DNA from: a virus | Lineage: Duplodnaviria; Heunggongvirae; Uroviricota; Caudoviricetes | Strand: one strand, 5' to 3' | Virus record (IMG/VR): IMGVR_UViG_3300027710_000010 | Coordinates: 53,763-117,762 of that record | Length of the DNA: 64,000 nucleotides | In this document: positions 4,728-39,981 of the stretch, piece by piece | Layout of the letters: each line of letters starts with the position of its first letter | Numbering within the stretch: the stretch's first letter is position 1 | The notes under the pieces: generated by a model | Seen by the model: only the letters and a program-made list of their open reading frames with translations | What the model was told of the DNA's origin: nothing | Databases searched by the model: none | Made by a program: the position numbers and the translations under genes

Positions 4728-4980
4728 TAAATTATCTTTAGTAATTTTACTATCTTTCTACTATAACTTATCTATTCATTTTGGTTAAACAGGATACATT
4801 TTTTACGACTTTTGCTCTACCAATTGAGCTACATTTGGCTGCTTTTTAGGCTTGACCAAAAGGTAGGACTCGAACCTACGACACAAAGTTTGGATGTAAA
4901 AATTGCTGTTAGTATCCCTAATTGGGGCGACACGGTTAAGTGAAGCTTCCACCAGCTAGTCAAATGGACTAGCACACGTT

Positions 4981-5055
4981 TGGTACCTGGTCACGGTTTC
5001 GAACCGCGGACCCTCTCCGTGTAAAGGAGACGCTCTACCCCTGAGCTAACCAGGC
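4981..5055 (-). tRNA. tRNA-Val (anticodon TAC)
   Basis: Reverse complement GCCTGGTTAGCTCAGGGGTAGAGC...TCTCC-TTTACAC-GGAGA...GGTTCGAAACC; cloverleaf folds; CCA encoded. Confidence 0.8.
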
Positions 5056-5059
5056 AAAT

Positions 5060-5287
5060 TTAATTTACTTTGTTCAAGTAAACTAAAGGATTAACCTTGC
5101 CACTTTGTATTTCCAGCAGTGCTGAAACACAAGGGCTATGATATTCTTTTTCTGCTATGCTGTTACGCCTAATTTCTCTTGCCTTTACAGCCGCAATTAA
5201 AACTAGATTAAATCTATTTCCGCCTGCTTGTTCTACACAAGCTTCTGTGTCTAACTCTGGGCCACGACTAAGTGCTTTTACGGTCAT
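5060..5287 (-). CDS. rpoZ: RNA polymerase omega subunit (RpoZ)-like protein
   Basis: 75 aa; GGNRFNLVLIAAVKAREIRR matches the conserved omega core (GNRFDLVLVAARRARQ in E. coli). Confidence 0.55.
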   Translation of the reverse strand: MTVKALSRGPELDTEACVEQAGGNRFNLVLIAAVKAREIRRNSIAEKEYHSPCVSALLEIQSGKVNPLVYLNKVN

Positions 5288-5344
5288 TATTTTCTCTTTT
5301 TAAAAATTAATTATAACACATACTTAGCAATGTGTCAAATATAT

Positions 5345-5436
5345 TGGTACCAGCGGAGGGAATCAAACCCTCTCAAGAACGCTAATCTGGCGCTAAAAGG
5401 TTTATAAAACCTCTCTGACTGTCAAGTCTCGCTGGC
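5345..5436 (-). tRNA. atypical long-variable-arm tRNA-like gene (anticodon loop TTTATAA; anticodon unresolved, UAU or UUA possible)
   Basis: Acceptor GCCAGCG/CGCTGGT, T-arm GAGGG-TTTGATT-CCCTC, variable stem GCGC/GCGT, CCA encoded; D-arm non-canonical (GACT-TGAC-AGTC). Confidence 0.45.
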
Positions 5437-5441
5437 AATTT

Positions 5442-5516
5442 TGGAGCGGGGTAAGAGAATCGAACTCTCAGCATTAGCTTGGAAGGCTAAGGTATTACCA
5501 CTATACGAACCCCGCA
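5442..5516 (-). tRNA. tRNA-Gly (TCC)
   Basis: GCGGGGTTCGTATAGTGGTAATACC-TTAGC-CTTCCAA-GCTAA...GAGAG-TTCGATT-CTCTT-ACCCCGC-T-CCA; very similar to T4 tRNA-Gly. Confidence 0.85.
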
Positions 5517-5520
5517 TATC

Positions 5521-5814
5521 TTATTTGATGTCTTTACCTGCTAGATCAACTTTACCTGTTTCGTAAAGTTCTTTTCGCTGTGCAAATTCATCTTCTGTTA
5601 GTCCATGCCAGCCAATACATTTGCCAGTCGGACTTCGACCGCACCCGCATCGACCAATATCATCTACGTTTTCTTTTACTCTTACTTGCATATCGTCCTC
5701 TGGAATTAGTTTCTTCATATATGTCGGTACACGCTTGCCAAAAATACCTTCAAAATTAGCATCTGCTTGCGCCATTGAAATATTCGTTGGACGTTGTCTA
5801 CTGCCTTTACCCAT
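5521..5814 (-). CDS. hypothetical Cys-rich protein
   Basis: 97 aa; CGCGRSPTGKCIGWHG cluster suggests a metal-binding site. Confidence 0.45.
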   Translation of the reverse strand: MGKGSRQRPTNISMAQADANFEGIFGKRVPTYMKKLIPEDDMQVRVKENVDDIGRCGCGRSPTGKCIGWHGLTEDEFAQRKELYETGKVDLAGKDIK

Positions 5815-5833
5815 TTACTATCTCCTAACTAAC

Positions 5834-5908
5834 TTGGTGGAGGTTAAGAGAATCGAACTCTTACGAAGACCTTGCAAAGGTCCCAGGCTACCATTACATC
5901 AAACCCCC
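5834..5908 (-). tRNA. tRNA-Ala (TGC)
   Basis: GGGGGTT...GGACC-TTTGCAA-GGTCT...AAGAG-TTCGATT-CTCTT-AACCTCC-A-CCA (G3-U70 present). Confidence 0.75.
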
Positions 5909-5911
5909 AAA

Positions 5912-6064
5912 TTAACTTGCTACTATATGCGGAATATATGGAACTGCTCTTGGACCACCATACAGTTGTTCAAAAAGTTTTTTAGCTTCTTGCGGTGTAT
6001 CCGCATAGATTCTTTTCTTTTCTTCACCTTGTGGTGTTCTTACAGTTGCTTCATACATTGGCAT
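5912..6064 (-). CDS. hypothetical small protein (start trimmed to avoid tRNA overlap)
   Basis: ORF 5912..6121 overlaps tRNA-Pro; internal Met (MPMYEA) is the likelier start. Confidence 0.3.
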   Translation of the reverse strand: MPMYEATVRTPQGEEKKRIYADTPQEAKKLFEQLYGGPRAVPYIPHIVAS

Positions 6065-6077
6065 AAAATTTCCTAAT

Positions 6078-6155
6078 TGGTCGGAGTACAAAGATTCGAA
6101 CTTTGGACCCCCGCGTCCCAAACGCGGTGCGCTAACCAGACTGCGCTACACTCCG
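6078..6155 (-). tRNA. tRNA-Pro (TGG)
   Basis: Plus strand shows CCGCG-tcCCAaa-CGCGG anticodon arm (codon CCA), T-arm CAAAG-attcgaa-CTTTG, acceptor CGGAGTG/TACTCCG. Confidence 0.75.
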
Positions 6156-6163
6156 AATAAACT

Positions 6164-6239
<76 letters not shown>

Positions 6240-6257
6240 GATACATTACTTATAACA

Positions 6258-6331
6258 TGGTTGCGGGACCAGGAATCGAACCTGGGACTGTAGCTTATGA
6301 GACTACTGTTTTACCGCTTCACTATCCCGCG
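6258..6331 (-). tRNA. initiator-like tRNA-fMet (CAT)
   Basis: 5' CGCGGGA..., 3' ...TCCCGCAACCA giving a C1-A72 mismatch as in bacterial initiator tRNA; anticodon loop CTCATAA. Confidence 0.65.
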
Positions 6332-6344
6332 ATAACTTTATAGG

Positions 6345-6425
6345 TGCTCTCTGTTGGAATCGAACCAAACTGTTTAACTCCGTATCTTCCTGGCACTTTC
6401 GGTGTGTAGTCGACCTAGCACCTAA
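6345..6425 (-). pseudogene. tRNA-like fragment / degenerate tRNA
   Basis: T-arm-like TTGG-aatcgaa-CCAA but acceptor and anticodon arms do not fold. Confidence 0.3.
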
Positions 6426-6678
6426 CTCGTGTGATCCAGTGTAGTTAAACTTCAAAGAGCATTTATAAAGTGTCTAGCTACCTACACCACATAGGCCCTA
6501 GACTGAGCTGTTACTCTGTCCATAACATTTTCTTCTTCTGGAAAGGTTATCAATCCTTACCCTAGATAGTTTTCAGTATCCCTTAAATAGGGACTGTAAG
6601 GTCAGGTCCTAGTGTACCCCCTGGTCTATCGTTACAGGGACGCTATTTCGTTAACGTAGAAATAGTAAGACGAGTTTC

Positions 6679-6754
6679 TTGGCTCCCCAACGTGGGCTCG
6701 AACCACGGACCAATTGATTAACAGTCAACTACTCTACCACTGAGCTATTAGGGA
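6679..6754 (-). tRNA. tRNA-Asn (GTT)
   Basis: TCCCTAA-TA-GCTC-AGTGGTA-GAGT..GTTGA-CTGTTAA-TCAAT..CGTGG-TTCGAGC-CCACG; U1-A72 as in E. coli tRNA-Asn. Confidence 0.75.
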
Positions 6755-6761
6755 ATAAACT

Positions 6762-6986
6762 TTATTCTGCGCTTGGTGTTGCGCTGTTACTTGTTGTCGT
6801 ATAATTTGCAGTACCACGTGGACCATTTGATGGCTTAGGTGACTTCATTACAATCTTACTGCATAGTTCAGCATCAATACATGCACGTTTCCATGCGCCA
6901 CGTTGATGTGCATCTTTGAACTTGCCTGTTGCTAAACTTATTTTAAGAAGCGAACTCATTTTATAGTTGCTTGTTGGCTTTAACAT
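6762..6986 (-). CDS. hypothetical protein
   Basis: 74 aa ORF between tRNAs, same strand as array. Confidence 0.3.
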   Translation of the reverse strand: MLKPTSNYKMSSLLKISLATGKFKDAHQRGAWKRACIDAELCSKIVMKSPKPSNGPRGTANYTTTSNSATPSAE

Positions 6987-7005
6987 ATTTTTCCTTTTTT
7001 AAAAT

Positions 7006-7095
7006 TGGCGGAATGACTGAGACTCGAACTCAGAAACCCTCTTTCGAGAGTCGACGGATTAGCAATCCGCTCCAATACCATTATGGGACCATTCC
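7006..7095 (-). tRNA. tRNA-Ser (GCT), type II
   Basis: 90 nt; anticodon arm CGGA-ttAGCaa-TCCG (codon AGC); variable arm CTCT-ttcg-AGAG; T-arm CTGAG-actcgaa-CTCAG. Confidence 0.75.
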
Positions 7096-7104
7096 ATTTA
7101 ACAC

Positions 7105-7195
7105 TTGGCGGAAACGGTGAGATTCGAACTCACGGTGCCTTTCGACACGGCAGTTTTCAAGACTGCTACAATAAACCGGACTCTGTCACATTTCC
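7105..7195 (-). tRNA. tRNA-Ser (TGA), type II
   Basis: 91 nt; anticodon arm GCAGT-ttTCAag-ACTGC (codon TCA); long variable arm; T-arm GTGAG-attcgaa-CTCAC. Confidence 0.75.
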
Positions 7196-7201
7196 ATAAT
7201 T

Positions 7202-7285
7202 TGGTGGGCAAAGAGAGACTCGAACTCTCAATCCTTTCGGCGCTGGCTTCTAAGACCAGAGTGTATACCATTCCACCACTTGCCC
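7202..7285 (-). tRNA. tRNA-Leu (TAG), type II
   Basis: 84 nt; tRNA anticodon arm CTGGT-CTTAGAA-GCCAG; long variable arm; T-arm GAGAG-actcgaa-CTCTC. Confidence 0.75.
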
Positions 7286-7436
7286 AAATTCTTTCCATTG
7301 TTAAGTGCTATGTGCAAATTCTGAGATAGTCGCTAAACATACTCAATGCCGATGCAGTTATGTCAGGATCAGTCGCCGGCAGCTTTGACCCGGATAGTGT
7401 AAGCGTCCTTACACGATACCTTATAACACTTAACAA

Positions 7437-7511
7437 TGGAGACGCTACGGGGAATCGAACCCCGCTTGCCAGGATGAAAACCTAGTGTCCTAACCGATAG
7501 ACGATAGCGTC
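7437..7511 (-). tRNA. tRNA-Glu (TTC)
   Basis: GACGCTA-TC-GTCT-ATCGGTTA-GGAC-A-CTAGG-TTTTCAT-CCTGG..CGGGG-TTCGATT-CCCCG-TAGCGTC-T-CCA. Confidence 0.8.
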
Positions 7512-7609
7512 ATTGTTTCTCTTAAATTTTTAATGAACAGTGTTAGTATTGCTACTAACTAAGTCTCTATTATATAGCGACTTGTGTCACTTGTCAAGTA
7601 AATTTTGGC

Positions 7610-7978
7610 TTAAAGCAAAATTAAAATTAAAAACAAGTAACAAAATTGATGAGCCATTTGGTCTAATCCCAAGTGACTCCAAAATGCCTTAGTGGTAATA
7701 TCTCTATTGCCCCAATTCATTTTTGCCCAATCAATATGATAGTGTACAACACCATCTACCATTGCGGCAATAATTATCCATACTACATACAAATCACTAA
7801 CATAGAAGCTGGCAATCAGCAATGCTATCAAAGTTCCTATGGCTTGCTCTAAGCTGTGACTAATGCCAATAGGATTCCCATAAATGGCTTTGCCTTTTAC
7901 TTGAGCTTCTGTTTGTAAGACAAAGTCCACAATCCAATGTTTGATCTGTAACCAGGTTAAAATTATTAGTATTTCCAT
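7610..7978 (-). CDS. small integral membrane protein
   Basis: 122 aa, 3-4 predicted hydrophobic helices; embedded in the tRNA array. Confidence 0.5.
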   Translation of the reverse strand: MEILIILTWLQIKHWIVDFVLQTEAQVKGKAIYGNPIGISHSLEQAIGTLIALLIASFYVSDLYVVWIIIAAMVDGVVHYHIDWAKMNWGNRDITTKAFWSHLGLDQMAHQFCYLFLILILL

Positions 7979-8030
7979 ATGTATATTATATAACGTTCTG
8001 TATGTAATGTCAAGACATTTTTAAAATATT

Positions 8031-8105
8031 TTGGCCGGGCTTGTAGGAATCGAACCTACACCGTCGGTTTCGAAGACCGAAATGATATCCATTTCACTAA
8101 AGCCC
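8031..8105 (-). tRNA. tRNA-Arg (TCG)
   Basis: CGGGCTT-TA-GTGA-AATGGATA-TCAT-T-TCGGT-CTTCGAA-ACCGA..GTAGG-TTCGATT-CCTAC-AAGCCCG-G-CCA. Confidence 0.8.
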
Positions 8106-8278
8106 GAATAGGTTTTCCGAGCGACCAACTATCTTTCTCAAGGACTCGCTGGCTTGTCTCGTATGAGAGAGTTTAGCTTGACCTTGTGTTGCTACTGGTG
8201 TGTCATGCTCAAGAATAGGGCACTAGCGCACAAGGGACTCAATCTCTACGTCTATCTCAGAAACTTTTTGGTCTCGCC

Positions 8279-8353
8279 ACCAGGAATCGAACCTGGATCT
8301 ACTCTTTAGGAGAGAGCCGTTCTATCCATTGAACTACAGCGAGATGGTGCTCC
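8279..8353 (-). tRNA. tRNA-Arg (CCT)
   Basis: Plus strand anticodon arm CTCT-ttAGGag-AGAG (codon AGG); T-arm CCAGG-aatcgaa-CCTGG; acceptor pairs with G-U wobbles. Confidence 0.7.
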
Positions 8354-8663
8354 CAACTGGTAACGATCCAGTGTTTATACATTACCAATGTATTGTAATG
8401 CCTTTATACTATGAGAGCAGTATTAGAAAAGGACCACAGAGTTGCGGTTGGATGAGGCGACCAAAGTGTTATAGCACTCTCTCTATTTGTCTCGCCTAAC
8501 ATGGAGTTCTTTTGTCCTTAGTGTATTCGCTAATACCGTCAACACTTCATCCGGACAAAGTAAAAAGTCTATAACTCTAACCTAGTGTCGCTTCCGGCAA
8601 ACACTATCGTCCCTTTCGGTTACTTTTAGAACCTTAGTCCTTTACTAATACTGCCGATATAAT

Positions 8664-8747
8664 TGGTGCGGGTGGCCGGACTCGAACCGGCATGCCTTTC
8701 GACGAGAGATTTTAAGTCTCTTGTGTATACCATTTCACCACACCCGC
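8664..8747 (-). tRNA. tRNA-Leu (TAA), type II
   Basis: 84 nt; anticodon arm AGAGA-ttTTAag-TCTCT (codon TTA); T-arm GCCGG-actcgaa-CCGGC; acceptor GCGGGTG/CACCCGC. Confidence 0.8.
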
Positions 8748-8823
8748 ATTGCTTAACAGTCCTTATTATATAACAATAAGCAGTCATTGCCTACATAATT
8801 TGGTTAACTAGTTAAAATAATTT

Positions 8824-8899
8824 TGGTGCAACCTGCAGGGATCGAACCTGCTTCAACGGTGCTTCAAACCGCCGCTATGACCACATCAGCTAAAGTTGC
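8824..8899 (-). tRNA. tRNA-Phe (GAA)
   Basis: GCAACTT-TA-GCTG-ATGTGGTCA-TAGC-G-GCGGT-TTGAAGC-ACCGT..GCAGG-TTCGATC-CCTGC-AGGTTGC-A-CCA. Confidence 0.8.
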
Positions 8900-8983
8900 A
8901 TTAATTTACCATATAGAAACACACTCCCGGAGACGAATTACCTCCCCGTACAAAGTATTATGGCTTCGAATGTGTTTTTATAT

Positions 8984-9057
8984 GGTAGGGGCACAGGGAA
9001 TCGAACCCTGATAGACCGGTTAAAAGCCGGATATTCTAGCCGTTGAATTATACCCCC
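8984..9057 (-). tRNA. tRNA-Lys (TTT)
   Basis: GGGGGTA-TA-ATTC-AACGGCTA-GAAT-A-TCCGG-CTTTTAA-CCGGT..CAGGG-TTCGATT-CCCTG-TGCCCCT-A-CCA. Confidence 0.8.
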
Positions 9058-9060
9058 ATA

Positions 9061-9135
9061 TGGTCCATGCTCTGAGAATCGAACTCAGTTCCTCCGGTTA
9101 AGAGCCGGTTACTTCGCCACTAAAGTTTAGCATGG
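9061..9135 (-). tRNA. tRNA-Lys (CTT)
   Basis: CCATGCT-AA-ACTT-TAGTGGCG-AAGT-A-ACCGG-CTCTTAA-CCGGA..CTGAG-TTCGATT-CTCAG-AGCATGG-A-CCA. Confidence 0.8.
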
Positions 9136-9581
9136 GTGTTCGTATTAGAATTATCTTTTACGTGCCACCTTAGACCATACGGGGGATCTAAGGGACACTA
9201 AAGTTTAGCTGAGCTTCGCTTCATTGTGTTTCCTCTTTTGTTGAATTAGTACAAGTTGTTCGCCGCACAACTTGTAAAGCGGGGGTCTGTTGAATTTGTT
9301 AAAGTAGTTCCCCCATCGTTATAGGAACCATTCACCCGTGTAATAAACTCGAGCAGGACTCGGTACGTTACTTGGGATCCATCCAGATGATACTCACTGT
9401 ATACCGATCCCACCGAAGCGATCAGTCGGGCAACGAACCCGCATCCTTTTACTATATCAGTAGTTCGAACATACCTTTATAGCGTGACTTCTCTTGCTAA
9501 CACTCTAACAAAACTTGGAGCAGAACATTTCTGTTTTTATTCGTATACAGGAATATTACTCCATATACAAACTGCATAACT

Positions 9582-9703
9582 TGGTGTCGCAGCCGGGATT
9601 CGAACCCGGATCTCTTCCTTGACATGGAATGTTGTAAGTTGCTGACTGTATCCTTAACAGGATAACCTTTATATAAGCGTCCTAACCATTAGACGACTGC
9701 GAC
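9582..9703 (-). tRNA. tRNA-Asp (GTC)-like gene with ~48-nt insertion between D-arm and anticodon stem (intron-containing or pseudogene)
   Basis: 3' half canonical (anticodon loop ATGTCAA, T-arm CCGGG-TTCGAAT-CCCGG, CCA); 5' acceptor GTCGCAG and D-arm found ~48 nt farther than expected; the insertion carries the AACAGGAT motif. Confidence 0.4.
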
Positions 9704-9806
9704 AAAATTGGCGGAAGGATGGCGTAATCGAAACCCTGGGCATCACTGCCTCCACCTGTGTTCAAAACAGGGCCAGCATCCCCGGCTGGACAACCTTCCA
9801 TTGTTT

Positions 9807-9883
9807 GGTACCCAAGGTCGGACTCGAACCGACACGATTCTCCTTTTGAGAGAGACGCCTCATACCAATTGGGCTACTTGGGC
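9807..9883 (-). tRNA. tRNA with anticodon CAA (Leu) but short variable arm
   Basis: GCCCAAG-TA-GCC..(12-nt D-loop)..GGC-G-TCTCT-CTCAAAA-GGAGA-ATCGT-GTCGG-TTCGAGT-CCGAC-CTTGGGT-A-CCA; class I architecture is unusual for Leu. Confidence 0.55.
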
Positions 9884-9898
9884 ATAAAACTTATTAGG

Positions 9899-9969
9899 GG
9901 TGACTAACGGGAGTTGAACCCGTACTACCAGAGTCACAGTCTAGGTTGCTACCATTACAACATAGTCAC
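9899..9969 (-). tRNA. tRNA-His (GTG)
   Basis: GTGACTA-TG-TTGT-AATGGTA-GCAA-C-CTAGA-CTGTGAC-TCTGG..ACGGG-TTCAACT-CCCGT-TAGTCAC-C; no CCA encoded. Confidence 0.7.
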
Positions 9970-9981
9970 ACCTAATAAGTC

Positions 9982-10058
9982 TTGGTAGTTCCTACAAGAT
10001 TTGAACTTGTGACCTTCACCGTGTCGAGGTGTTGCTCTACCAACTGAGCTAAGGAACT
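9982..10058 (-). tRNA. tRNA-Val (GAC), anticodon loop with C33
   Basis: AGTTCCT-TA-GCTC-AGTTGGTA-GAGC-A-ACACC-TCGACAC-GGTGA..ACAAG-TTCAAAT-CTTGT-AGGAACT-A-CCA; position 33 is C rather than U. Confidence 0.6.
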
Positions 10059-10061
10059 AAA

Positions 10062-10133
10062 TGGTGCCTCTGAGTAGATTCGAACTACTATAACCTGGCT
10101 TAGAAGGCCTGGCACTGCTCCATCAGCAGAGGC
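10062..10133 (-). tRNA. tRNA-Arg (TCT) with irregular D-arm
   Basis: Anticodon loop CTTCTAA, T-arm AGTAG-TTCGAAT-CTACT, acceptor GCCTCTG/CAGAGGC perfect; D-arm does not fold canonically. Confidence 0.5.
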
Positions 10134-10257
10134 AAATTAAACAGGATAGATTTAACATAGTGCTACCGTTACACCAAACCTTTCGGCTACGGAGTCGAAC
10201 CGTTCCTTTTCTTTTCAAGAGAAGTGAGTTATAATGTTTGCTGTTACTATCCTAAAC
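10134..10257 (-). other. tRNA-like fragment flanked by ATCCTGTTT motif and TTTGCTGTTACTATCCTAAACTGG motif
   Basis: Isolated T-arm-like CGG-TTCGACT-CCG without a matching acceptor; same architecture as 4786-4925. Confidence 0.3.
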
Positions 10258-10334
10258 TGGTACCCGCGGAAGGATTCGAACCTCCGACTCCCACGTTCGT
10301 AGCGTAGTACTCTAGTCCACTGAGTTACGCGGGT
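10258..10334 (-). tRNA. tRNA-Arg (ACG)
   Basis: ACCCGCG-TA-ACTC-AGTGGACTA-GAGT-A-CTACG-CTACGAA-CGTGG-GAGTC-GGAGG-TTCGAAT-CCTTC-CGCGGGT-A-CCA. Confidence 0.8.
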
Positions 10335-10394
10335 ATAATAAAACAGGATGCCTTTTTTGATACGGCTTGAAAGCCGTTGCTCAACCGCTGAGCG

Positions 10395-10465
10395 AATCTG
10401 CCATAAGGCAAATGTTGGAATCGAACCAACGTGTCATAAATGACGTTGCTGTAAGCATCCTTAAC
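10395..10465 (-). pseudogene. tRNA-like fragment (T-arm only)
   Basis: GTTGG-aatcgaa-CCAAC T-arm but no foldable acceptor or anticodon arm. Confidence 0.3.
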
Positions 10466-10540
10466 TTGGCACCCGGACTAGGGATCGAACCTAGGCTAAC
10501 AGAGTCAAAGTCTGTTGTGCTACCATTACACAATCCGGGA
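10466..10540 (-). tRNA. tRNA-Gln (TTG)
   Basis: Plus strand anticodon arm ACAGA-gtCAAag-TCTGT (codon CAA); T-arm CTAGG-gatcgaa-CCTAG; CCA encoded; position 1-72 mismatched. Confidence 0.7.
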
Positions 10541-10547
10541 ATAAAAT

Positions 10548-10625
10548 TGGTCTCCATGGTAGGATTCGAACCTACAGCCTCCTGACTCCAGATCAGGCCG
10601 TCTACCAGATTGACATTACACAGAG
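10548..10625 (-). tRNA. tRNA, anticodon ambiguous (loop TCTGGAG: TGG-Pro with C33, or GGA)
   Basis: CTCTGTG.. CCTGA-TCTGGAG-TCAGG-AGGCT-GTAGG-TTCGAAT-CCTAC-CATGGAG-A-CCA; good stems but non-canonical loop register. Confidence 0.5.
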
Positions 10626-10817
10626 ATATTTCTCTTACCGGCCGGACTTACACCGGCAATATACTAGATACGTTAAATCTAGCCTTCCTAATGATACGTG
10701 CTTTCTTCACACGAATGACGATAAATTTAATGTAAGGCTATGCGAGCTCATCTGCATACTTAGGCTTTTTGTCTTCTCCTGCCCGGGCAGTTACGACTGT
10801 AGCGTCACCTTAAAACT

Positions 10818-10889
10818 TGGAGCGGGCTACAGGCATCGAACCTGCATCTTTCGGCTTGGAAGGCCAAACGTATTCCTCTAACAACCCGC
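10818..10889 (-). tRNA. tRNA-Gly (TCC)-like, second copy, irregular D-arm
   Basis: GCGGGTT... TTGGC-CTTCCAA-GCCGA..GCAGG-TTCGATG-CCTGT-AGCCCGC-T-CCA. Confidence 0.5.
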
Positions 10890-10896
10890 ATAAACT

Positions 10897-10971
10897 TGGT
10901 GGAGACCGAGGGAATCGAACCCTTCTAGTCAAGTATCTTGCAAGGATACTCCGTAACCCATTACTGCCCCC
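10897..10971 (-). tRNA. tRNA-Ala (TGC)-like, atypical (6-bp anticodon stem, 4-nt D-loop)
   Basis: GGGGGCA..GTAA-TGGG-TTAC..AGTATC-CTTGCAA-GATACT..AGGG-TTCGATT-CCCT-GGTCTCC-A-CCA. Confidence 0.45.
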
Positions 10972-10973
10972 AT

Positions 10974-11055
10974 TATAGAAACACACTTAAACAGTCCATA
11001 AGCGGTTACTCGCTGACTCCCTAGGTAACAGGGCGGATCTGTATGTGTTTCTATA
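10974..11055. repeat. 11-13 bp inverted repeat TATAGAAACACAC ... GTGTTTCTATA flanking ~60 nt
   Basis: Seen directly at 10974-10986 and 11045-11055 between two tRNA genes. Confidence 0.6.
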
Positions 11056-11056
11056 A

Positions 11057-11134
11057 TGGCTGTCCGACTAGGGATCGAACCTAGCTCATTCTTCGTTAAC
11101 AGCGAAGCGCCTACACCATGCTTGCTCTCGGACA
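11057..11134 (-). tRNA. tRNA-Asn (GTT), second copy
   Basis: TGTCCGA... CTTCG-CTGTTAA-CGAAG..CTAGG-TTCGATC-CCTAG-TCGGACA-G-CCA; U1-A72. Confidence 0.7.
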
Positions 11135-11144
11135 ATAAATTTTT

Positions 11145-11217
11145 GGTATCGCGTACGGGGATCGAACCCGCCTGAGTAAGTTGAAAGCCTACGGACCTCA
11201 CCAGAAGTCAAACGCGA
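11145..11217 (-). tRNA. tRNA-Glu (TTC), second copy
   Basis: ATCGCGT-TT-GACT-TCTGGTGA-GGTC-C-GTAGG-CTTTCAA-CTTAC-TCAG-GCGGG-TTCGATC-CCCGT-ACGCGAT-A-CCA. Confidence 0.7.
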
Positions 11218-11287
11218 TGTAATAAACAGGATGCTTATTTTTCAATTAAAAGTTGAATTTTTGAATTTGCTGTTCGCATCCTAAAAT

Positions 11288-11361
11288 TGGTGCCCCATGA
11301 CAGAATCGAACTGCCGTAACCTGATTACAAAACAGGTGTAATGCCATTATACTAATAGGGC
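11288..11361 (-). tRNA. tRNA-Thr (TGT), second copy
   Basis: Anticodon arm CCTG(A)-ttACAaa-(A)CAGG (codon ACA); T-arm ACAG-aatcgaa-CTGC; acceptor GCCCTAT/ATGGGGC; CCA. Confidence 0.65.
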
Positions 11362-11438
11362 GAAAAAAACAGGATAGCATCTTTTTAGATTTTCGTATAA
11401 AGAAAAGTTTTATTAAGTTTGCTGTTACTATCCTAAAC

Positions 11439-11512
11439 TGGAGCGGGTAGCGAGAATCGAACTCGCGAATAAACCTTGGCAAGGTTTCAGGTTACCATTA
11501 CATCATACCCGC
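11439..11512 (-). tRNA. tRNA-Gly (GCC)
   Basis: Anticodon arm AAACC-ttGGCaa-GGTTT (codon GGC); T-arm GCGAG-aatcgaa-CTCGC; acceptor GCGGGTA/TACCCGC; CCA. Confidence 0.8.
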
Positions 11513-11518
11513 ATTAAC

Positions 11519-11593
11519 TTGGCGTACCTCCAGAGACTCGAACTCCGACGAACAGTTTTGGAGACTGTCATGCTGCCATTACATTAGAGATAC
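11519..11593 (-). tRNA. tRNA-Trp (CCA)
   Basis: Anticodon arm ACAGT-ttTGGag-ACTGT (codon TGG); T-arm and acceptor (GTATCTC/GAGGTAC) fold; CCA. Confidence 0.7.
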
Positions 11594-11599
11594 ACTAAT

Positions 11600-11675
11600 T
11601 GGCGCCTCGTAGGGGTTTCGATCCCCTTGCCTCCGCAGTGACAGTGCGGTGCTCTCCCGATTGAGCTAACGAAGC
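11600..11675 (-). tRNA. tRNA-Asp (GTC)
   Basis: Anticodon arm CCGCA-gtGACag-TGCGG (codon GAC); D-arm GCTC-tcccgatt-GAGC; T-arm AGGGG-tttcgat-CCCCT; CCA. Confidence 0.8.
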
Positions 11676-11680
11676 ATAAT

Positions 11681-11754
11681 TGGTTCCTCCAACAAGAATC
11701 GAACTTGTAATGACCGGTTATCAGCCGATTGTTATACCATTTAACTATAGAGGA
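11681..11754 (-). tRNA. tRNA-Ile (GAT)
   Basis: tRNA anticodon arm ATCGG-CTGATAA-CCGGT; T-arm ACAAG-TTCGATT-CTTGT; acceptor TCCTCTA/TGGAGGA; CCA. Confidence 0.75.
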
Positions 11755-11759
11755 ATAAT

Positions 11760-11837
11760 TGGAGTACGGGGAGGGAGTCGAACCCTCGGTTTTACGATTT
11801 TGCAGACCGTTGCATTGGGCCTCTCTGCCACCCGTAC
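11760..11837 (-). tRNA. tRNA-Cys (GCA)
   Basis: GTACGGG-TG-GCA-(11-nt loop)-TGC-A-ACGGT-CTGCAAA-ATCGT..GAGGG-TTCGACT-CCCTC-CCCGTAC-T-CCA. Confidence 0.7.
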
Positions 11838-11843
11838 ATGTTT

Positions 11844-11919
11844 TGGTGGTAATGATTGGATTTGAACCAATAACACTCTCCGTATGAAGGAGGAAGACTA
11901 CCATTGTCCTACATTACCA
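11844..11919 (-). tRNA. tRNA-Met (CAT), elongator-type (or Ile2 if lysidinylated)
   Basis: GGTAATG-TA-GGAC-AATGGTA-GTCT-T-CCTCC-TTCATAC-GGAGA-GTGTT-ATTGG-TTCAAAT-CCAAT-CATTACC-A-CCA. Confidence 0.7.
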
Positions 11920-11924
11920 TAATT

Positions 11925-12008
11925 GGTGGAGTATCCTGGGATCGAACCAGGCGTGCCCGAAGGCGGCGGATTTACAGTCCACTGCATCACCATTGATGCT
12001 TCTACTCC
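11925..12008 (-). tRNA. tRNA-Tyr (GTA), type II
   Basis: 84 nt; anticodon arm GTGGA-CTGTAAA-TCCGC identical in loop to E. coli tRNA-Tyr; 3-bp D-stem, long variable arm; CCA. Confidence 0.75.
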
Positions 12009-12013
12009 ATGTT

Positions 12014-12088
12014 TGGCGCCGCCGACGGGAATCGAACCCGCCTTAGTTGGATAGACAATCCAGTGCCCTCCCAGAGGACTACAACGGC
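12014..12088 (-). tRNA. tRNA with atypical anticodon loop TTGTCTA (GTC with pyrimidine at 37); identity uncertain
   Basis: GCCGTTG-TA-GTCC-TCTGGGA-GGGC-A-CTGGA-TTGTCTA-TCCAA-CTAAG-GCGGG-TTCGATT-CCCGT-CGGCGGC-G-CCA. Confidence 0.45.
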
Positions 12089-12092
12089 AAAT

Positions 12093-12178
12093 TGGTGGAT
12101 GTGGTAAGATTCGAACTTACTACACTATGTGAACGAGGTTACAGCTCGCCGTGGCTCTCCAGCTCCGACCGCACATCC
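12093..12178 (-). tRNA. type II tRNA with anticodon GTA (second Tyr-like)
   Basis: 86 nt; anticodon arm GCGAG-CTGTAAC-CTCGT, variable arm CAC-ata-GTG, T-arm GTAAG-TTCGAAT-CTTAC, acceptor GGATGTG/CACATCC, CCA. Confidence 0.6.
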
Positions 12179-12837: not shown

Positions 12838-13125
12838 AAGCACCATTACTTGCTAACATGTGTTTATTATAGTGTCTTTTACGACACTTGTCAACAACTT
12901 TCTGCATTTATTTTTGTTGTATTTCTACAACAACTACGAACACATTGCTTGCTAACTTGTCTCTATTATATAGCATTTCTGCTACCTTGTCAACACTTTT
13001 GGTAAACTTTCTTTGTTGTATTTTCACAACACTTACGGACTACCTTCTTTGCTAACTTGTCTCTATTATATAACAGTATGTAGCCTTTGTCAACATCTTT
13101 CTTGTTGTATTTGAACAACAAATTT
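12838..13125 (+). promoter_or_regulatory. three tandem ~95-bp repeats, each with a promoter-like element (ATTGCTTGCTAACTTGTCTCTATTATATA) and a hairpin TTGTTGTATTTnnACAACA; candidate tandem promoters for the plus-strand operon starting at 13283
   Basis: Direct repeats at 12838-12936, 12937-13035 and 13036-13125; TTGCTT/TATATA-like hexamers with ~16-bp spacing. Confidence 0.5.
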
Positions 13126-13282
13126 TGACAAAAGAACTTCTGTAACACAATGATTGTATTATAGTTTTATTTATATCTTTTGTCAAGAACCATATTGAAA
13201 TGTGGTATTTTTACGACATTCACGAATCGCCTGTACTACAAAAGCACCCCTATAAATAAAAACATTATACAAAGGATTAACA

Positions 13283-14053
13283 ATGCCGTCAATGAGCGAG
13301 TACACTTCCGAATGGAATACTTACAAACTTAAAACTGAAACTGATCGAGGTATTATCGAAATCAAGTGGAGTGATGCAGACACACTTGCTCAATGGTCAA
13401 ACATTCAAGCAGGATTGTATTTGCAGAACGAAGCATCATCTAGACAACTCTTTTACGAACACTTTACTAGATGGTATCAAATGTTTTGGAATCAACGATT
13501 CCGTCAGGGCATTTTTAATCTAGCCGACGATGCAGTTATTATGGACATTGGATCAGGAGTGGCCGTAATCGACTTGCTCCTTGCCAAATACTTGCCCAAG
13601 TCTAAATTCTACTTATTAGACAAAGAAGGGTTTGAATTTTATCCAGGGGTTTACTACGACCCCAAGTATCCCGAGTACCATAATTGGTCTCCAGTCATTG
13701 ATGCTATCAAGACCAACGGGTTTGATGCTGACAGATTTACAATTTTAAATCAAGATTCCACTTTCCCAGAACAGGTAGATTGCATCACTTCTTACTTGTC
13801 GTGGGGTTGGCATTATCCTAAAGATGTCTATTGGAACAAGGTAATGGCTAGTTTAAAAGTAGGCGGCATGCTAGTAATGGATATACGACCATTAGAGGAC
13901 AGAGATATCATTGCAGAAATTAGTGAAGATCTAAAAGCTGAACCAGTACTTCATCCTTTTGAAATCAAGTTGCCCAAACACGTAGATGCTAGACCATCAC
14001 CTGATCCCTCAAAACCATCCGGTCACAGAGCTATGTGGATTAGAAAGGGATAA
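13283..14053 (+). CDS. methyltransferase-like Rossmann-fold protein
   Basis: IMDIGSGVAVIDLL resembles SAM-MTase motif I; RBS AAAGGA 7 nt upstream. Confidence 0.5.
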   Translation: MPSMSEYTSEWNTYKLKTETDRGIIEIKWSDADTLAQWSNIQAGLYLQNEASSRQLFYEHFTRWYQMFWNQRFRQGIFNLADDAVIMDIGSGVAVIDLLLAKYLPKSKFYLLDKEGFEFYPGVYYDPKYPEYHNWSPVIDAIKTNGFDADRFTILNQDSTFPEQVDCITSYLSWGWHYPKDVYWNKVMASLKVGGMLVMDIRPLEDRDIIAEISEDLKAEPVLHPFEIKLPKHVDARPSPDPSKPSGHRAMWIRKG

Positions 14054-32643: not shown

Positions 32644-33648
32644 TCATGACTGACCTTTATTTGGGAAAGGCCAAGCACCAGATTGGATTGGCGCACTCGT
32701 ATAACGGTAACGTTCATTACCACTGTACAACCGGTCGTTGGTGCCTTTCTCAAAGCCTTCACGATAGTCCAATCGTTCACGACCAAACTTGTCGTCTACT
32801 GCATTGTAGCTGTTTTGCCATCCTGCTGAGTAGCCTGCGTAGAACGCACTATTACCCAACTTAGGCCCTGTGTATACAGGCTTGCTACCTACCGCAGTAG
32901 ACTGTACTGATTTTGTAAACGCATCTTCTGGACTCACGTTCAACTCACCAATAACTTCATATCGGCAAGCACGACCCTTAGCATCGTTGTAGTCACTTGG
33001 AATGCTTACAACATCACGTGGATTGATCTTAACAATCACTGTGCGAGCACCACCAAAACTAGCCAAGTAGCTCATAGCACAGAAGTGCAAGCCTGTTGAA
33101 CAAGTACGATCCTTGTTGTCGTCAACATCATGTCGTTCCATTTCAACAACTTGACCGATGCTGTTATCCATTGTACCCGAATGGCAATCTTTATAGTCTT
33201 CACGAACTTTCTTGTAAGCAAGGAAGTGACCGTCCGGAGTAATTGGCAAATTGCTCTTTTCCAAGAAGTTATACAGTTCAGTAACTGCTCGCTTGCTTGG
33301 GTTCTGATACAAGTTTTCCATAAAGTTGACCATGGGCTCAATAGGAAAGCCTTCTTGCAACATGGCAATCATACGCACTGACAAACCAGTGTTCAGTTCT
33401 TTACCTTTCCAGTATAGTGTTTCGCCTTGGATGCTAACATTGCCAGCACCGTAGTTCAACACAACCTTTTTAGGTTCAATAATGTCTGGGAGGGCGTCCC
33501 AATCTTCTGCTTTAATTGCGTCCAGCACTTTTTGGTAAGTGATGTGCGTCTTGCTAATGGTATGCGGTTTGTTGTCAATTACAACAACAATGTTACTACC
33601 TTGAATCAAAAATGGATAAGCCATTTTAAACACCTTTCTTTTGGTCAA
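32644..33648 (-). CDS. rIIB: rIIB-like protein
   Basis: Immediately downstream of rIIA-like gene, right size (334 aa), T4-type arrangement. Confidence 0.5.
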   Translation of the reverse strand: MTKRKVFKMAYPFLIQGSNIVVVIDNKPHTISKTHITYQKVLDAIKAEDWDALPDIIEPKKVVLNYGAGNVSIQGETLYWKGKELNTGLSVRMIAMLQEGFPIEPMVNFMENLYQNPSKRAVTELYNFLEKSNLPITPDGHFLAYKKVREDYKDCHSGTMDNSIGQVVEMERHDVDDNKDRTCSTGLHFCAMSYLASFGGARTVIVKINPRDVVSIPSDYNDAKGRACRYEVIGELNVSPEDAFTKSVQSTAVGSKPVYTGPKLGNSAFYAGYSAGWQNSYNAVDDKFGRERLDYREGFEKGTNDRLYSGNERYRYTSAPIQSGAWPFPNKGQS

Positions 33649-35791
33649 TCATCGAAATATATTCTGCAATAGCATGACTGTTATTGCAACCACCTAGACT
33701 GCTCAACAATGGATAGCGGCTGTAAATGGCAGTACTTTCACTTACAAGGCTTTTCTTCAACACTTCAATTTCAAAGTTAATGCTATAACGAGTACACATG
33801 CGATGCAAACTGTAATCGGTCAAGTCAACTTTTTCTGCTGTTGCCAACTTACTTACAGTCTTAACATAAGGACTGTTTGTATTATTGATTAGCTCCACAA
33901 TTTGTTTATTATACTGGATCAGCAAGCCTCTGTCAACACTGCTGTACGCCAAATTCAGTTTTTGTGCATCAGTCATTTTGGACAATGTTGAGATGACAAG
34001 TTCTTCTACGTTAACCCAATTTTTTTGAGTTTTGATAAAATCCAAATCACCTTTACGCACACCCAAAACATCAACCCGCAGTGTTTTAAATCCGCATCGC
34101 TTCAAATCTTCAATAAATTCCTTACCACTGAAGTTATTACCTGCTTTGCTGATTACATTGTAACCACTCAAAGGCAAATAGTAGTGTGTAGAGTTAGTGT
34201 CAAAGCCGTCAGCTTTGCCTGCATCACGCCATACCACTTCCTTAGCACGGTAATAACCACCGCGGCCACGTTCTTCCAAACGCAAAATGCTAACGTTCTT
34301 ACCACTGGCAGAACTTTGAGCACGTTCTTTCTGCAAAAGCGCACTCGCCAGCATGACCTTTGGAGGCGACTTGATAAACTTTAAAAACGCATCAAACTGT
34401 GCAGGCTTTGTTTTGTCCACAGGTTCCATAACAAATACATGCGAGCTGTAAGGCATGTCCTTACTGTCTGTATTACGCCAGTGAAACTTAGCACGTTCTG
34501 CCGCACCTACTTTAGTATCGTTCTTAATAAAGTATGCACTGTCGCTAACACTAATACGCCATGAATGAATAGACGCCTTAGTAGTTTGATCGTATTCGTG
34601 ATCAGACTTCATAGTGCTACAGGTATTGCTACCGCGGGCCTTTGTAAAGCCTCGGATTACAATGTTGTACTTTTTAGACAGCGTTGATTCCAAAATCTTA
34701 AATGGGATCAAACGACCTGTGTTGTAATGGTTAGGAGTTTGATCAAAGAACACATCTTTAGTGTCTGTGATAAATTTGATGGCCGCAGTGGACATCAAAG
34801 TGTCATCACGTTGCTTGTTCAACCAAATTGCACGTTCCCATTTGTTAGTGAACGTCTTTGCCTTTTCTGCAATGTGTACTGCCAACTGAGTATTCAGTGC
34901 TTCCAACTTTGCTTTGATTGCGGCAATAGTTTGTGGAATGTATGACAAGCCTTCACGTGACGCTTGAAAGTCTACTTCACCGATAGCAAAGTGAATTTCC
35001 AAACCACAACCCAACAAGCGAGACACGTCGCCCAAATCCTTATGGTTAGCTTGCGGCACTTCAATAGGGTAAGCAATATTGCCCATAATGGCAACACTAC
35101 GGCCTCCATCGTTATGCGAATGCACGCCTGGGATGATGTCGCGTTCTTTGTAAGACACGTCACGGAATTGAAAATCGCTAACACCGCAAACAACAGGGCG
35201 CAGTTTAAAATATTTGTAGACATGACGTGCTTCGTCGTGGAACTTACTAAAGTCCCAACGGTCGTTAACACTGAACTTAACTTCCACACCAGTGGGTTCG
35301 TCTGTAGTTTCAGTCATCATTTTAGCAATGGATGGCACACCTGCATCGTTAATGAACGCAGAGTAAATACCCTTAACACCGTTTTGGATAGCGGTAACAG
35401 TAAAGTTGTCTGTGTAGCTGAATGGGCTCTTACTGCCCAAACCCAACGCACCAATAAACTCGTTGCTATTAGTCTTAGTGGATTCAAAGTAAGTGGTGTA
35501 AATTTGTGTCACTTGTTCATGCGACAAGCCAGTACCGTAGTCACGGATGGCGAACCAAGGTTCCAATTGATTGGGCAAATGCACATCAAATGGTGTTTCG
35601 TGTTTGCCTGCGGCAGCATGACTGTCCACAGCATTACAACTCAGTTCGCGAACGATAGCACGGACCTTGTTAGCATACAAGCCCGAGCTCAAAATGTTAA
35701 ATGCTTTTGCCGAATTGCGAATTCGAAATTCACCAATTTCGCCAACATTGCTCAAAACTGCTTCGTTAACTGGAGCATTGTTCAAAATCAT
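33626..35791 (-). CDS. rIIA: rIIA-like protein (GHKL-ATPase-like N-terminus)
   Basis: ILSSGLYANKVRAIVRELSCNAVDSH and GLGSKSPFSYTD blocks match T4 RIIA; 721 aa versus T4 725 aa. Confidence 0.75.
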   Translation of the reverse strand: MILNNAPVNEAVLSNVGEIGEFRIRNSAKAFNILSSGLYANKVRAIVRELSCNAVDSHAAAGKHETPFDVHLPNQLEPWFAIRDYGTGLSHEQVTQIYTTYFESTKTNSNEFIGALGLGSKSPFSYTDNFTVTAIQNGVKGIYSAFINDAGVPSIAKMMTETTDEPTGVEVKFSVNDRWDFSKFHDEARHVYKYFKLRPVVCGVSDFQFRDVSYKERDIIPGVHSHNDGGRSVAIMGNIAYPIEVPQANHKDLGDVSRLLGCGLEIHFAIGEVDFQASREGLSYIPQTIAAIKAKLEALNTQLAVHIAEKAKTFTNKWERAIWLNKQRDDTLMSTAAIKFITDTKDVFFDQTPNHYNTGRLIPFKILESTLSKKYNIVIRGFTKARGSNTCSTMKSDHEYDQTTKASIHSWRISVSDSAYFIKNDTKVGAAERAKFHWRNTDSKDMPYSSHVFVMEPVDKTKPAQFDAFLKFIKSPPKVMLASALLQKERAQSSASGKNVSILRLEERGRGGYYRAKEVVWRDAGKADGFDTNSTHYYLPLSGYNVISKAGNNFSGKEFIEDLKRCGFKTLRVDVLGVRKGDLDFIKTQKNWVNVEELVISTLSKMTDAQKLNLAYSSVDRGLLIQYNKQIVELINNTNSPYVKTVSKLATAEKVDLTDYSLHRMCTRYSINFEIEVLKKSLVSESTAIYSRYPLLSSLGGCNNSHAIAEYISMIDQKKGV

Positions 35792-38961: not shown

Positions 38962-39981
38962 TTATGCTCCTAAAAAGTGTTGGATAATTTCGTAATGATC
39001 TTCAAAACATTCTTCGCTCTTGACCTCAGCAATGGGAACCCAACGTGCTTTTTCTGCATCGTCGGAGCCTTTTACTTTGGGCAATTCGCCATCTGGCAAT
39101 TGAATAAAGAATGCGTGTGTAATAATGCGACCACGTGGACTACGGTCAATCGCATCAAATACCTTACTGCGTTGAATACTGCCGCGAAGTACTGGAGCTG
39201 GTACTTTGATTAGCGTTTCTTCACGCAATTCGCGGATCGCGGCATCTTCAACTGACTTGTCTGTGTTGGCGTTTACATATCCGCCTGGCAATGCCCACAA
39301 GCCCTTACCTGGTTCAGCACGGCGTTTGATAAGCAAGATGTGTCCGCTTTGGATCACAACTGCATCAGCTGTACTGAATATTGGAGGATAAGGCAAACTT
39401 GCGTATTGCTTCTTGTAGTTGATAACAAACTCGCGTTCGCGGATGATCTGTTCGTACTCTGCTGTTTCTTTGAACTTCATTAGGAAGTCAAAGGTAGATT
39501 CTGGAACAACGCCTTTGATAAAGCTCATATTGACATCACGCTTGAAGAACAAGTCTCGAATGTTAACGGCACTTAAAAACTCAATAAGCTCTACGTTTTC
39601 AAATCCCCATTGTGGGAACATATCTAAGTAGAATGAACTGTCATCTTTCTTGTGACCGATGATGCCAACCTTGTCGCCGGGCTTAGTGTGTTTGGCAACT
39701 AGTGCCTGTACACGAACTGCCCATGCTTGGTCGTTGTAAATTGTATCTGGATTTTCTTCAACGCTGATTAGCATTGAAAGTCCGCCTGCCGCATACTTAA
39801 TCATCTGTGCTCGTTCAGCACTTGTAAACGGGTTTTTGTAAGTGCGGGGTTGTGCGGCACTACCTGTAATAATCACCAGCTGTTCACAAAGTGCTGTGGC
39901 ACGTTTGATAATCTCTAAGTGAGCATTATGTATGGGTTGGAAGCGTCCAATAAGGACTAGGGTATCGTATTTTCTAGACAT
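38962..39981 (-). CDS. nadM: bifunctional NMN adenylyltransferase / Nudix ADP-ribose pyrophosphatase (NadM-Nudix, NatV-like)
   Basis: N-terminal LVLIGRFQPIHNAH (HxGH nucleotidyltransferase) plus C-terminal Nudix box AAIRELREETLI. Confidence 0.8.
   Translation of the reverse strand: MSRKYDTLVLIGRFQPIHNAHLEIIKRATALCEQLVIITGSAAQPRTYKNPFTSAERAQMIKYAAGGLSMLISVEENPDTIYNDQAWAVRVQALVAKHTKPGDKVGIIGHKKDDSSFYLDMFPQWGFENVELIEFLSAVNIRDLFFKRDVNMSFIKGVVPESTFDFLMKFKETAEYEQIIREREFVINYKKQYASLPYPPIFSTADAVVIQSGHILLIKRRAEPGKGLWALPGGYVNANTDKSVEDAAIRELREETLIKVPAPVLRGSIQRSKVFDAIDRSPRGRIITHAFFIQLPDGELPKVKGSDDAEKARWVPIAEVKSEECFEDHYEIIQHFLGA

Follow-up and report, generated by a model that had tools for sequence, protein, structure and literature searches.

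The omega gene and its place in the tRNA array

The stretch of DNA analyzed here, called the window, comprises 64,000 nucleotides of the IMG/VR virus record IMGVR_UViG_3300027710_000010 and contains, inside an array of tRNA genes, an open reading frame (ORF) for a homolog of the omega subunit (RpoZ) of bacterial RNA polymerase (RNAP). The ORF lies between tRNA-Ile(UAU) and tRNA-Val(UAC) on the same strand as the array, 57 nt from the end of the upstream tRNA-Ile(tat) (coordinates of all features are collected in Table 1), and its full 75-residue product is MTVKALSRGPELDTEACVEQAGGNRFNLVLIAAVKAREIRRNSIAEKEYHSPCVSALLEIQSGKVNPLVYLNKVN. The initial annotation had placed a 75-residue omega-like gene here and had quoted from it the peptide AGGNRFNLVLIAAVKAREIRR; this peptide is present exactly inside the product and the coordinates are correct, the strand (minus) having been left unstated.

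The product scores above the curated cut-offs of two omega models, Pfam PF01192 (RNA_pol_Rpb6; 29.5 bits against a gathering threshold of 26) and the NCBIfam equivalog TIGR00690 (rpoZ; 27.3 bits against 23.6). When it was searched as a single sequence against the Protein Data Bank (PDB), all 22 matches were bacterial omega chains (best E = 1.3e-4), and a profile of 67 family members again matched omega chains only (23 of 23; best E = 9.4e-10). A search of PHROGs returned no family for the protein. Both conserved blocks of omega are kept, namely, GGNRFxLVLIAAxRAREI (equivalent to Escherichia coli G14-Q29) and ALLEIQxG (A50-G57), with the core residues G23, N24, R25, F26, L28, V29, L30, A32, and R37 and A56, L57, E59, I60, and G63 aligned to E. 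coli G14-R28 and A50-G57. An AlphaFold2 model built from the family alignment has four helices, with a mean predicted local distance difference test (pLDDT) score of 83.8 and a predicted template modeling (pTM) score of 0.71. In a Foldseek comparison of this model with the PDB, the top 28 matches were all omega chains of bacterial RNAPs (best TM-score, 0.70; root mean square deviation of 2.1 Å over 68 columns), with E-values that are modest, as expected for a protein of such small size. The initial annotation's assignment to omega/RNA_pol_Rpb6 thus stands; it had named the lack of a significant model hit and a fold unrelated to omega as outcomes that would speak against it, but both models are passed and the predicted fold matches omega chains only. 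The product is a true, though diverged, homolog of bacterial RNAP omega, and an omega fold is predicted for it. A 5-kb interval holds 48 ORFs of at least 30 residues, so that a bare 75-codon ORF says little; this one is far beyond chance because it passes two curated omega thresholds and because its intact homologs, kept by purifying selection, number in the hundreds.

The gene is preceded by a perfect sigma-70 promoter with an AT-only discriminator (0 of 8 positions GC), and, given the usual spacing between a −10 hexamer and the transcription start, its leader should be about 15 nt long. The two closest relatives (protein identities of 92% and 80%) share the gene order tRNA-Gly, tRNA-Ile(tat), promoter, omega, tRNA-Val(tac); their promoter hexamers are unchanged, whereas the 17-nt spacer has diverged. 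At the position of the weak Shine-Dalgarno-like sequence of the window, these relatives (L169 and L170) carry GGAG. The same tRNA-Ile(tat) stands 5' of omega in L169, in L170, and in 9 viral loci. This tRNA, with the anticodon UAU and an unusual length of 92 nt, gives a weak tRNA-Sec-like score in Rfam (30.6 bits); its long-arm form is odd for a reader of the Ile codon AUA and is kept in the closest relatives (L169, 973-1064; L170, 6434-6525).

The window has 12 perfect TTGACA-N17-TATAAT sites, every one of them on the minus (coding) strand, against 0.02 expected by chance, which argues that the phage uses the host sigma-70 holoenzyme heavily. The putative omega promoter is strong and of the sigma-70 type that unmodified host RNAP recognizes, as would suit an early gene in T4-like phages. 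No terminator-like site was found in the gap between omega and tRNA-Val, and omega is therefore probably co-transcribed with tRNA-Val and the other tRNAs. The initial annotation had read the placement among tRNAs as a hint of co-expression; embedding among tRNAs is indeed a conserved trait of the family, but the gene in the window need not depend on read-through alone, as it has a consensus promoter of its own.

Two architectures are found in the family. In the first, the 3' end of a tRNA is followed by a 14- to 28-nt leader with an AAGG-type Shine-Dalgarno sequence, the ORF, 2 to 8 nt, and the next tRNA, which leaves no room for a promoter. The second, seen in 20 of 84 loci and in this window among them, is alike except for a TATAAT promoter that intervenes upstream. 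Omega stays in the array even though its flanking tRNAs change from locus to locus (Met/Pro, Ile/Val, Arg/Val, Met/Gly, and others). This tight packing of tRNA, ORF, and tRNA suggests that tRNA processing punctuates the messages.

Several other features of the array were noted. Just upstream of its first tRNA (12178), four perfect TTGACA-17-TATAAT promoters stand in tandem about 100 bp apart, adjoined by a site with an 11-of-12 match, and a similar GTTAGCAA sequence follows three of the four; the set amounts to a promoter battery for the array. Four more small ORFs in the array have spacing like that of omega, about 20 nt upstream and 3 to 7 nt downstream of tRNAs. Homologs of one of these occur in 37 of 82 related loci, another is a DUF3307 protein, and two are without a family. 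Four tRNA-like elements lie beyond the ARAGORN calls.

Distribution and divergence of the phage omega family

The search for further phage rpoZ homologs that the initial annotation had proposed was productive. A large protein collection yielded 173 homologs of 74 to 98 residues (46 to 92% identity, nearly all with PF01192), IMG/VR contains 265 viral contigs with an omega relative (some of them 282 to 356 kb long), and when 1.84 billion cluster representatives were searched exhaustively, at least 129 clusters at 50% identity were recovered (E <= 1e-3). On long contigs the contexts are syntenic and phage-like, with a Ro-like protein, a dual-specificity-phosphatase-like (DSP) protein, a metallophosphoesterase, an AAA_33 kinase, an IF1-like protein, PTH2, RF fragments, and T4 RNA ligase. 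Reading frames were intact in all 67 unique omega coding sequences from related loci, and the Nei-Gojobori ratio of nonsynonymous to synonymous substitution rates (dN/dS) had a median of 0.20 over 393 pairs, 98% of which were below 0.5. These results show that the omega gene is coding and under purifying selection, and it is widespread among uncultivated phages. Some database "omega" proteins of 105 to 127 residues (P0125, P0129, P0131, and similar entries) open with peptides such as GSSPTWGT; these lengths look like artifacts of gene-caller over-extension, in which an upstream tRNA gene has been translated by read-through.

The description of a phage omega as unusual in the initial annotation was justified. 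A tblastn search of 50,697 deposited phage records gave eight weak matches and no genuine member of the phage omega family. The annotated match, checked in detail, is a bacterial gmk-rpoZ-spoT operon mislabelled as phage (record H21), and another, an "UNVERIFIED" record without annotation (H24), matches just as the Salmonella and E. coli records do. Full-text literature searches found no paper describing a phage-encoded omega, and a 2026 survey of rpoZ distribution leaves phages unmentioned. The automatic annotation of JGI does label proteins of this family as omega, so the sequences are already in databases, where they appear to be unstudied. Taken together, these findings place the gene in the window in a large phage clade of omega homologs that had not been described before and that is kept inside tRNA arrays. 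They suggest that these viruses swap a core subunit of host RNAP, a strategy of which the searches turned up no instance among deposited phage genomes or in published work. As rpoZ is used as a bacterial marker gene in metagenomes (e.g., 10.1101/2022.11.11.516076), phage copies may be counted among the bacterial ones.

Among 185,579 species, each scanned through a single genome, no cellular relative exceeded about 47% identity. The closest ones retrieved, at 42 to 47%, belong to Aeromonadaceae, Vibrionaceae, and Alteromonadales, but the scan pattern, GNRF[ND]LVL[IV], favors gammaproteobacterial omegas, and this affinity is therefore unreliable as a statement of origin. Phage and cellular sequences formed the top split in 197 of 200 bootstraps of a distance tree, which is a crude one (unweighted pair group clustering [UPGMA] on p-distances) with gammaproteobacterial sequences only on its cellular side. 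The genomic settings also separate the two groups: omega was found with tRNAs in 84 of 84 related loci, and a tRNA lies within 500 bp in 80 of 84 phage loci versus 0 of 79 cellular loci. The gmk-rpoZ-spoT context of the bacterial chromosome, seen in record H21, is replaced in the window by tRNA flanks.

The proteins themselves differ mostly at their ends. The phage family has a median length of 75 residues compared with 91 for the closest cellular omegas, and none of 67 phage proteins starts with Met-Ala-Arg (MAR), whereas 77 of those 79 cellular omegas do; among the wider representatives the count is 1 of 129. Residues 2 to 5 of omega coordinate the phosphates of guanosine tetraphosphate (ppGpp) at site 1 of RNAP (PMC7676912), and across the Proteobacteria the presence of site 1 can be predicted from MAR (PMC6912228); this N-terminal feature is missing from the phage family. 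In colinear alignments, P/T-E/Q-I/V-D stands opposite E. coli A2-R3-V4-T5, and an extension of 5 to 20 residues, N-terminal of the start of E. coli omega, contains a near-invariant Ser-Arg pair (S7-R8). A conserved Cys (C17) replaces E. coli Ala9, Leu stands opposite E. coli Arg52, and the acidic C-terminal tail is gone, the phage protein ending in YLxKV. Across the 129 representatives the shared omega core (G23-R37 and A56-G63) is retained, and family-specific conserved positions are S7 (102 of 125 sequences), R8 (104 of 125), D13 (107 of 128), C17 (112 of 127), Q61 (101 of 128), and Y70 (84 of 110). By sequence and fold, the phage protein belongs to the omega family, and it lacks the features of the ppGpp-responsive proteobacterial subtype and of the chromosomal locus.

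The phage and the genes around omega

The window is phage DNA from the lineage of large T4-like phages. It is assigned to a phage because it carries rIIA, NAD salvage genes of the NadV and NatV types, and phage PHROG families and because it has relatives in IMG/VR. The best matches of its rIIA are in T4-like Aeromonas, Citrobacter, and RB43-type phages, at only 35 to 37% identity, and megablast of the region around omega gave matches of tRNA length only, which leaves this phage without a close cultured relative. The window also encodes several radical-SAM enzymes and a large number of phage-only PHROG families.

It could be asked whether omega has any function for the phage at all, as it might be a recently captured host gene on its way to being lost, an ORF that arose by chance between tRNAs, or part of a bacterial contig taken for a phage. 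Errors of the last kind do occur, since the deposited "phage" rpoZ matches mentioned above appear to be bacterial DNA. However, the rIIA, NadV/NatV, and phage-only PHROG genes of the window, its lack of a gmk-rpoZ-spoT context, the 265 viral contigs and 129 diverged clusters with their intact coding sequences and low dN/dS, and the lack of a close relative in the cellular genomes of the 185,579 species representatives effectively exclude an artifact or passenger gene.

The most faithful companion of omega is the DSP gene, found in 73 of 82 loci with a median identity of 71%. A metallophosphoesterase accompanies omega in 72 of 82 loci and lies past the left edge of the window. The array is closed by what is probably a phage Ro/Y-RNA module, composed of the Ro-like gene and, about 2 kb upstream of it and 70 nt downstream of tRNA-Val, a full-length but subthreshold match to the Y RNA-like YrlA. 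Elsewhere, the permuted transfer-messenger RNA (tmRNA) overlaps a perfect promoter and its predicted tag is unusually long, and a set of auxiliary genes unusual for a phage lies on the minus strand. Three large orphan ORFs showed no similarity in Pfam, PHROGs, or a PDB sequence search, RNAP subunits included. PHROG scans of 20 further ORFs of the window revealed no recognizable transcription factor, and no late-sigma genes were visible among the scanned ORFs.

Table 1. Positions of the omega gene and other features of the window
Feature	Coordinates	Strand	Details
Phage omega (RpoZ-like) coding sequence	5060-5287	minus	75 codons; ATG at 5287, stop codon 5060-5062; from ORF list, hidden Markov models, fold, dN/dS
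Shine-Dalgarno-like AAGAGA	5293-5298	minus	weak; 5-10 nt upstream of ATG
Omega promoter, TTGACA-17 nt-TATAAT	5310-5338	minus	perfect sigma-70, 12/12 match; extended −10 TG; −10 hexamer ends 22 nt before ATG
tRNA-Ile(tat)	5345-5436	minus	upstream flank; 92 nt; ARAGORN
tRNA-Val(tac)	4981-5055	minus	downstream flank; starts 4 nt past omega stop codon; ARAGORN and Rfam agree
tRNA array	4981-12178	minus	37 tRNA genes on one strand, small ORFs in gaps; ARAGORN, Rfam
Array ORFs without family	5521-5814, 5912-6061	minus	
Array ORF with homologs in related loci	6762-6986	minus	74 residues
Array ORF, DUF3307	7610-7978	minus	
Additional tRNA-like elements	9585-9703, 9713-9799, 11147-11219, 11927-12008	minus	one tRNA match over 119 nt (insert or intron?), two subthreshold tRNA-Sec-like, one weak tRNA
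Tandem promoters	12866-13186	minus	four perfect sites
Promoter site adjoining tandem set	13264-13292	minus	11/12 match
DSP gene	586-1092	minus	
Ro-like RNA-binding protein	1389-2795	minus	DUF2828/DUF7788, phrog_850
YrlA-like element (RF02553)	4785-4910	minus	33 bits against gathering threshold 69; E = 3.5e-4
rIIA	33626-35791		phage marker gene
NadV-type nicotinamide phosphoribosyltransferase	37294-38688		NAD salvage
NMNAT-Nudix (NatV-type) protein	38962-39981		NAD salvage
HD_4-like ORF	40075-40515		
Permuted two-piece tmRNA, betaproteobacterial type	41428-41876	minus	RF01850, 104 bits vs 84; RF04321, 122.8 bits
Perfect promoter overlapping tmRNA	41834-41862		
Large orphan ORFs	47430-49988, 53115-54932, 58534-59973	minus	852, 605, and 479 residues
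Auxiliary genes	44304-46409, 50011-51171, 54943-55626, 40617-41339, 43533-44282	minus	set comprises CHASE2-sensor adenylate/guanylate cyclase, FecR-like, phrog_7278 match (ferredoxin oxidoreductase, auxiliary-gene category), Gcw_chp protein, D-Ala-D-Ala carboxypeptidase

A proposed role on the host polymerase and its precedents

The initial annotation proposed that the phage protein modulates assembly or stability of host RNAP, and we likewise infer that it may do so. Its partner is most likely the host enzyme because the protein is of the rpoZ type, no viral beta or beta-prime is evident in the window, and the promoters are of the sigma-70 type. That it occupies the seat of omega on host beta-prime is most likely, being the most economical reading of these sequences, and a remodelled ppGpp site 1 is our leading guess as to what changes. 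Action in trans is feasible, since plasmid-expressed E. coli omega variants displace the chromosomal subunit and alter RNAP, a form of subunit poisoning (PMC7700224).

We hypothesize that host sigma-70 holoenzyme transcribes the omega gene immediately after infection and that tRNA-processing nucleases free its message from the tRNA-containing transcript. Phage omega would then take the seat on beta-prime, replacing or out-competing host omega, and would thereby turn the host core enzyme into a phage-adapted one. Whatever new property this confers would reside in the parts that are unlike cellular omega, i.e., the N terminus, the Cys in place of Ala9, the Leu in place of Arg52, and the lost C-terminal tail. 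The swap would remodel or abolish ppGpp site 1 and leave in place the stabilizing, processivity-promoting latch on beta-prime. In hosts that are starved or alarmed by defense, RNAP might in this way stay productive on tRNA and early transcripts, which are long, untranslated, and highly structured. A modified subunit is favored because departures from cellular omega are concentrated at the N terminus, which forms the omega half of ppGpp site 1, and at the C terminus. As a whole, the explanation that phage omega replaces host omega on beta-prime as a modified subunit with a remodelled site 1 has, in our judgment, an even chance of being correct. The proposition that a widespread lineage of large phages re-programmes host RNAP by substituting a core subunit whose N terminus either rewires or removes site 1 or provides a private docking site for phage factors is put forward more tentatively, with the balance tilted against it.

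The retention of both omega blocks and of the fold would also be expected if the phage simply supplemented the dosage of omega. The protein would then act exactly as host omega does, latching beta-prime and stabilizing assembly and elongation, and its early synthesis would saturate omega-free or damaged core enzyme when demand for transcription peaks on the tRNA array and the early genes, with no new regulatory property. Omega supports processivity and resistance to Rho; RNAP that lacks it is less processive and more Rho-sensitive (PMC13192885), and the gene sits inside a heavily promoted, untranslated 7-kb tRNA array. A supplement should closely resemble the host subunit, however, and the best cellular match is only 42 to 47% identical; moreover, S7, R8, C17, Q61, and Y70 are strongly conserved yet absent from cellular omegas, and MAR and the C-terminal tail have been lost. 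We regard a plain supplement as unlikely, if still worth carrying along.

Family-specific conserved residues at the protein surface would also suit a docking adaptor for a phage regulator or a subunit of a phage-encoded multisubunit RNAP. In the Rhodobacter gene transfer agent, omega is reported to be a direct target of GafA, the activator of that phage-like element (PMC9638019), and the window has three large orphan ORFs without detectable homology. These ORFs nevertheless showed no similarity to any RNAP subunit or solved structure, a partner was not identified, and the many sigma-70 consensus promoters speak for the use of host RNAP, which makes such a role improbable. An equally dim view, or a slightly dimmer one, can be taken of phage omega as a poison or switch, which by binding beta-prime more tightly would lower sigma-70 holoenzyme formation or initiation and so contribute to host shut-off or ease the hand-over to phage late sigma factors. 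Dominant-lethal E. coli omega mutants do bind core enzyme more tightly, cut sigma binding fivefold, and block initiation while sparing elongation (PMC7700224), and the toxic variants were the more structured ones, much as phage omega is a compact, well-predicted helical bundle without a disordered tail. Yet this phage depends on many perfect sigma-70 promoters, with the tRNA array and the tmRNA among the places where they stand, and would harm itself by weakening sigma-70 initiation early, and late-sigma genes are not to be seen among the scanned ORFs.

Several observations weigh against the replacement of host omega by a modified subunit. The discriminators of the phage promoters are AT-rich (0 to 4 GC of 8 positions), and these promoters should therefore already be largely insensitive to ppGpp/DksA at initiation, so that the most straightforward reason for a phage to disable site 1 falls away. 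Site 1 could be retained if the near-invariant Arg8 takes over the function of Arg3, and one MAFFT alignment did put LSR against MAR. A "stringent-response toolkit" around omega was considered as support and dropped, because TraR/DksA-like genes (10 of 82 loci) and HD_4 genes (2 of 82) are too rare as companions; the HD_4-like ORF of the window falls below the Pfam threshold (22.4 versus 27.2). Omega is less conserved than its neighbors, with a median identity of about 56% compared with 71 to 87%; between the window and locus L005 the values are about 58% for omega, 94% for the DSP protein, and 82% for the Ro-like protein. The only clue to the host lineage is the permuted tmRNA of the betaproteobacterial type, yet the nearest retrieved cellular omegas are gammaproteobacterial. 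Finally, loss of omega in E. coli gives only mild phenotypes (PMC13192885).

No core subunit of bacterial RNAP is understood less well than omega, whose deletion phenotypes are mild and disputed, and a natural clade of omega variants under selection in hundreds of diverged phage genomes offers a natural experiment on the purpose of omega. Compared with bacterial RpoZ, for which the 91-residue E. coli omega serves as the reference, the phage protein shares both curated models, the GNRF-x-LVL-x-AA-x-RAR and AL-x-EI-x-x-G motifs, and the helical fold. It differs in its location in a tRNA array, the replacement of MAR by a Ser-Arg extension, the Cys and Leu substitutions at Ala9 and Arg52, the lack of an acidic tail, and an identity of at most 47% to retrieved cellular omegas.

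Phages are known to modify host RNAP by other means, such as AsiA, MotA, gp33/gp55, and Alt/ModA of T4, Gp2 of T7, and phage sigma factors. These are early small proteins that re-programme host RNAP as novel binders, enzymes, or sigma-type specificity factors, and to our knowledge none is a homolog of a core subunit. The aim of phage omega would be alike, but it would substitute a core subunit itself. If this is true, it would be the first known virus to replace a core subunit of a cellular RNAP rather than to add a binder, a sigma factor, or a covalent modification, and core-subunit substitution would be a new candidate mode of host take-over. The PF01192 superfamily also includes the RPB6/RpoK homologs of archaea, eukaryotes, and giant viruses, and large DNA viruses with their own multisubunit RNAP carry a subunit of the RPB6 type. 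Phage omega, in contrast, is of the bacterial rpoZ type (TIGR00690) and is accompanied by sigma-70-type promoters, with no viral beta or beta-prime evident in the window.

Two further systems bear on how an omega subunit might serve a phage. In the Rhodobacter gene transfer agent, a phage-like element is reported to control RNAP by contacting omega (PMC9638019); GafA uses the omega of its host, no GafA-like partner was identified here, and the phage of the window brings an omega of its own. The precedent for how phage omega could act is provided by the dominant-lethal "structured" omega mutants of E. coli, in which a variant supplied in trans can displace resident omega and change RNAP (PMC7700224). 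Those mutants, which carry point or silent mutations, were made in the laboratory and cripple initiation, whereas phage omega represents a natural, anciently diverged clade under purifying selection.
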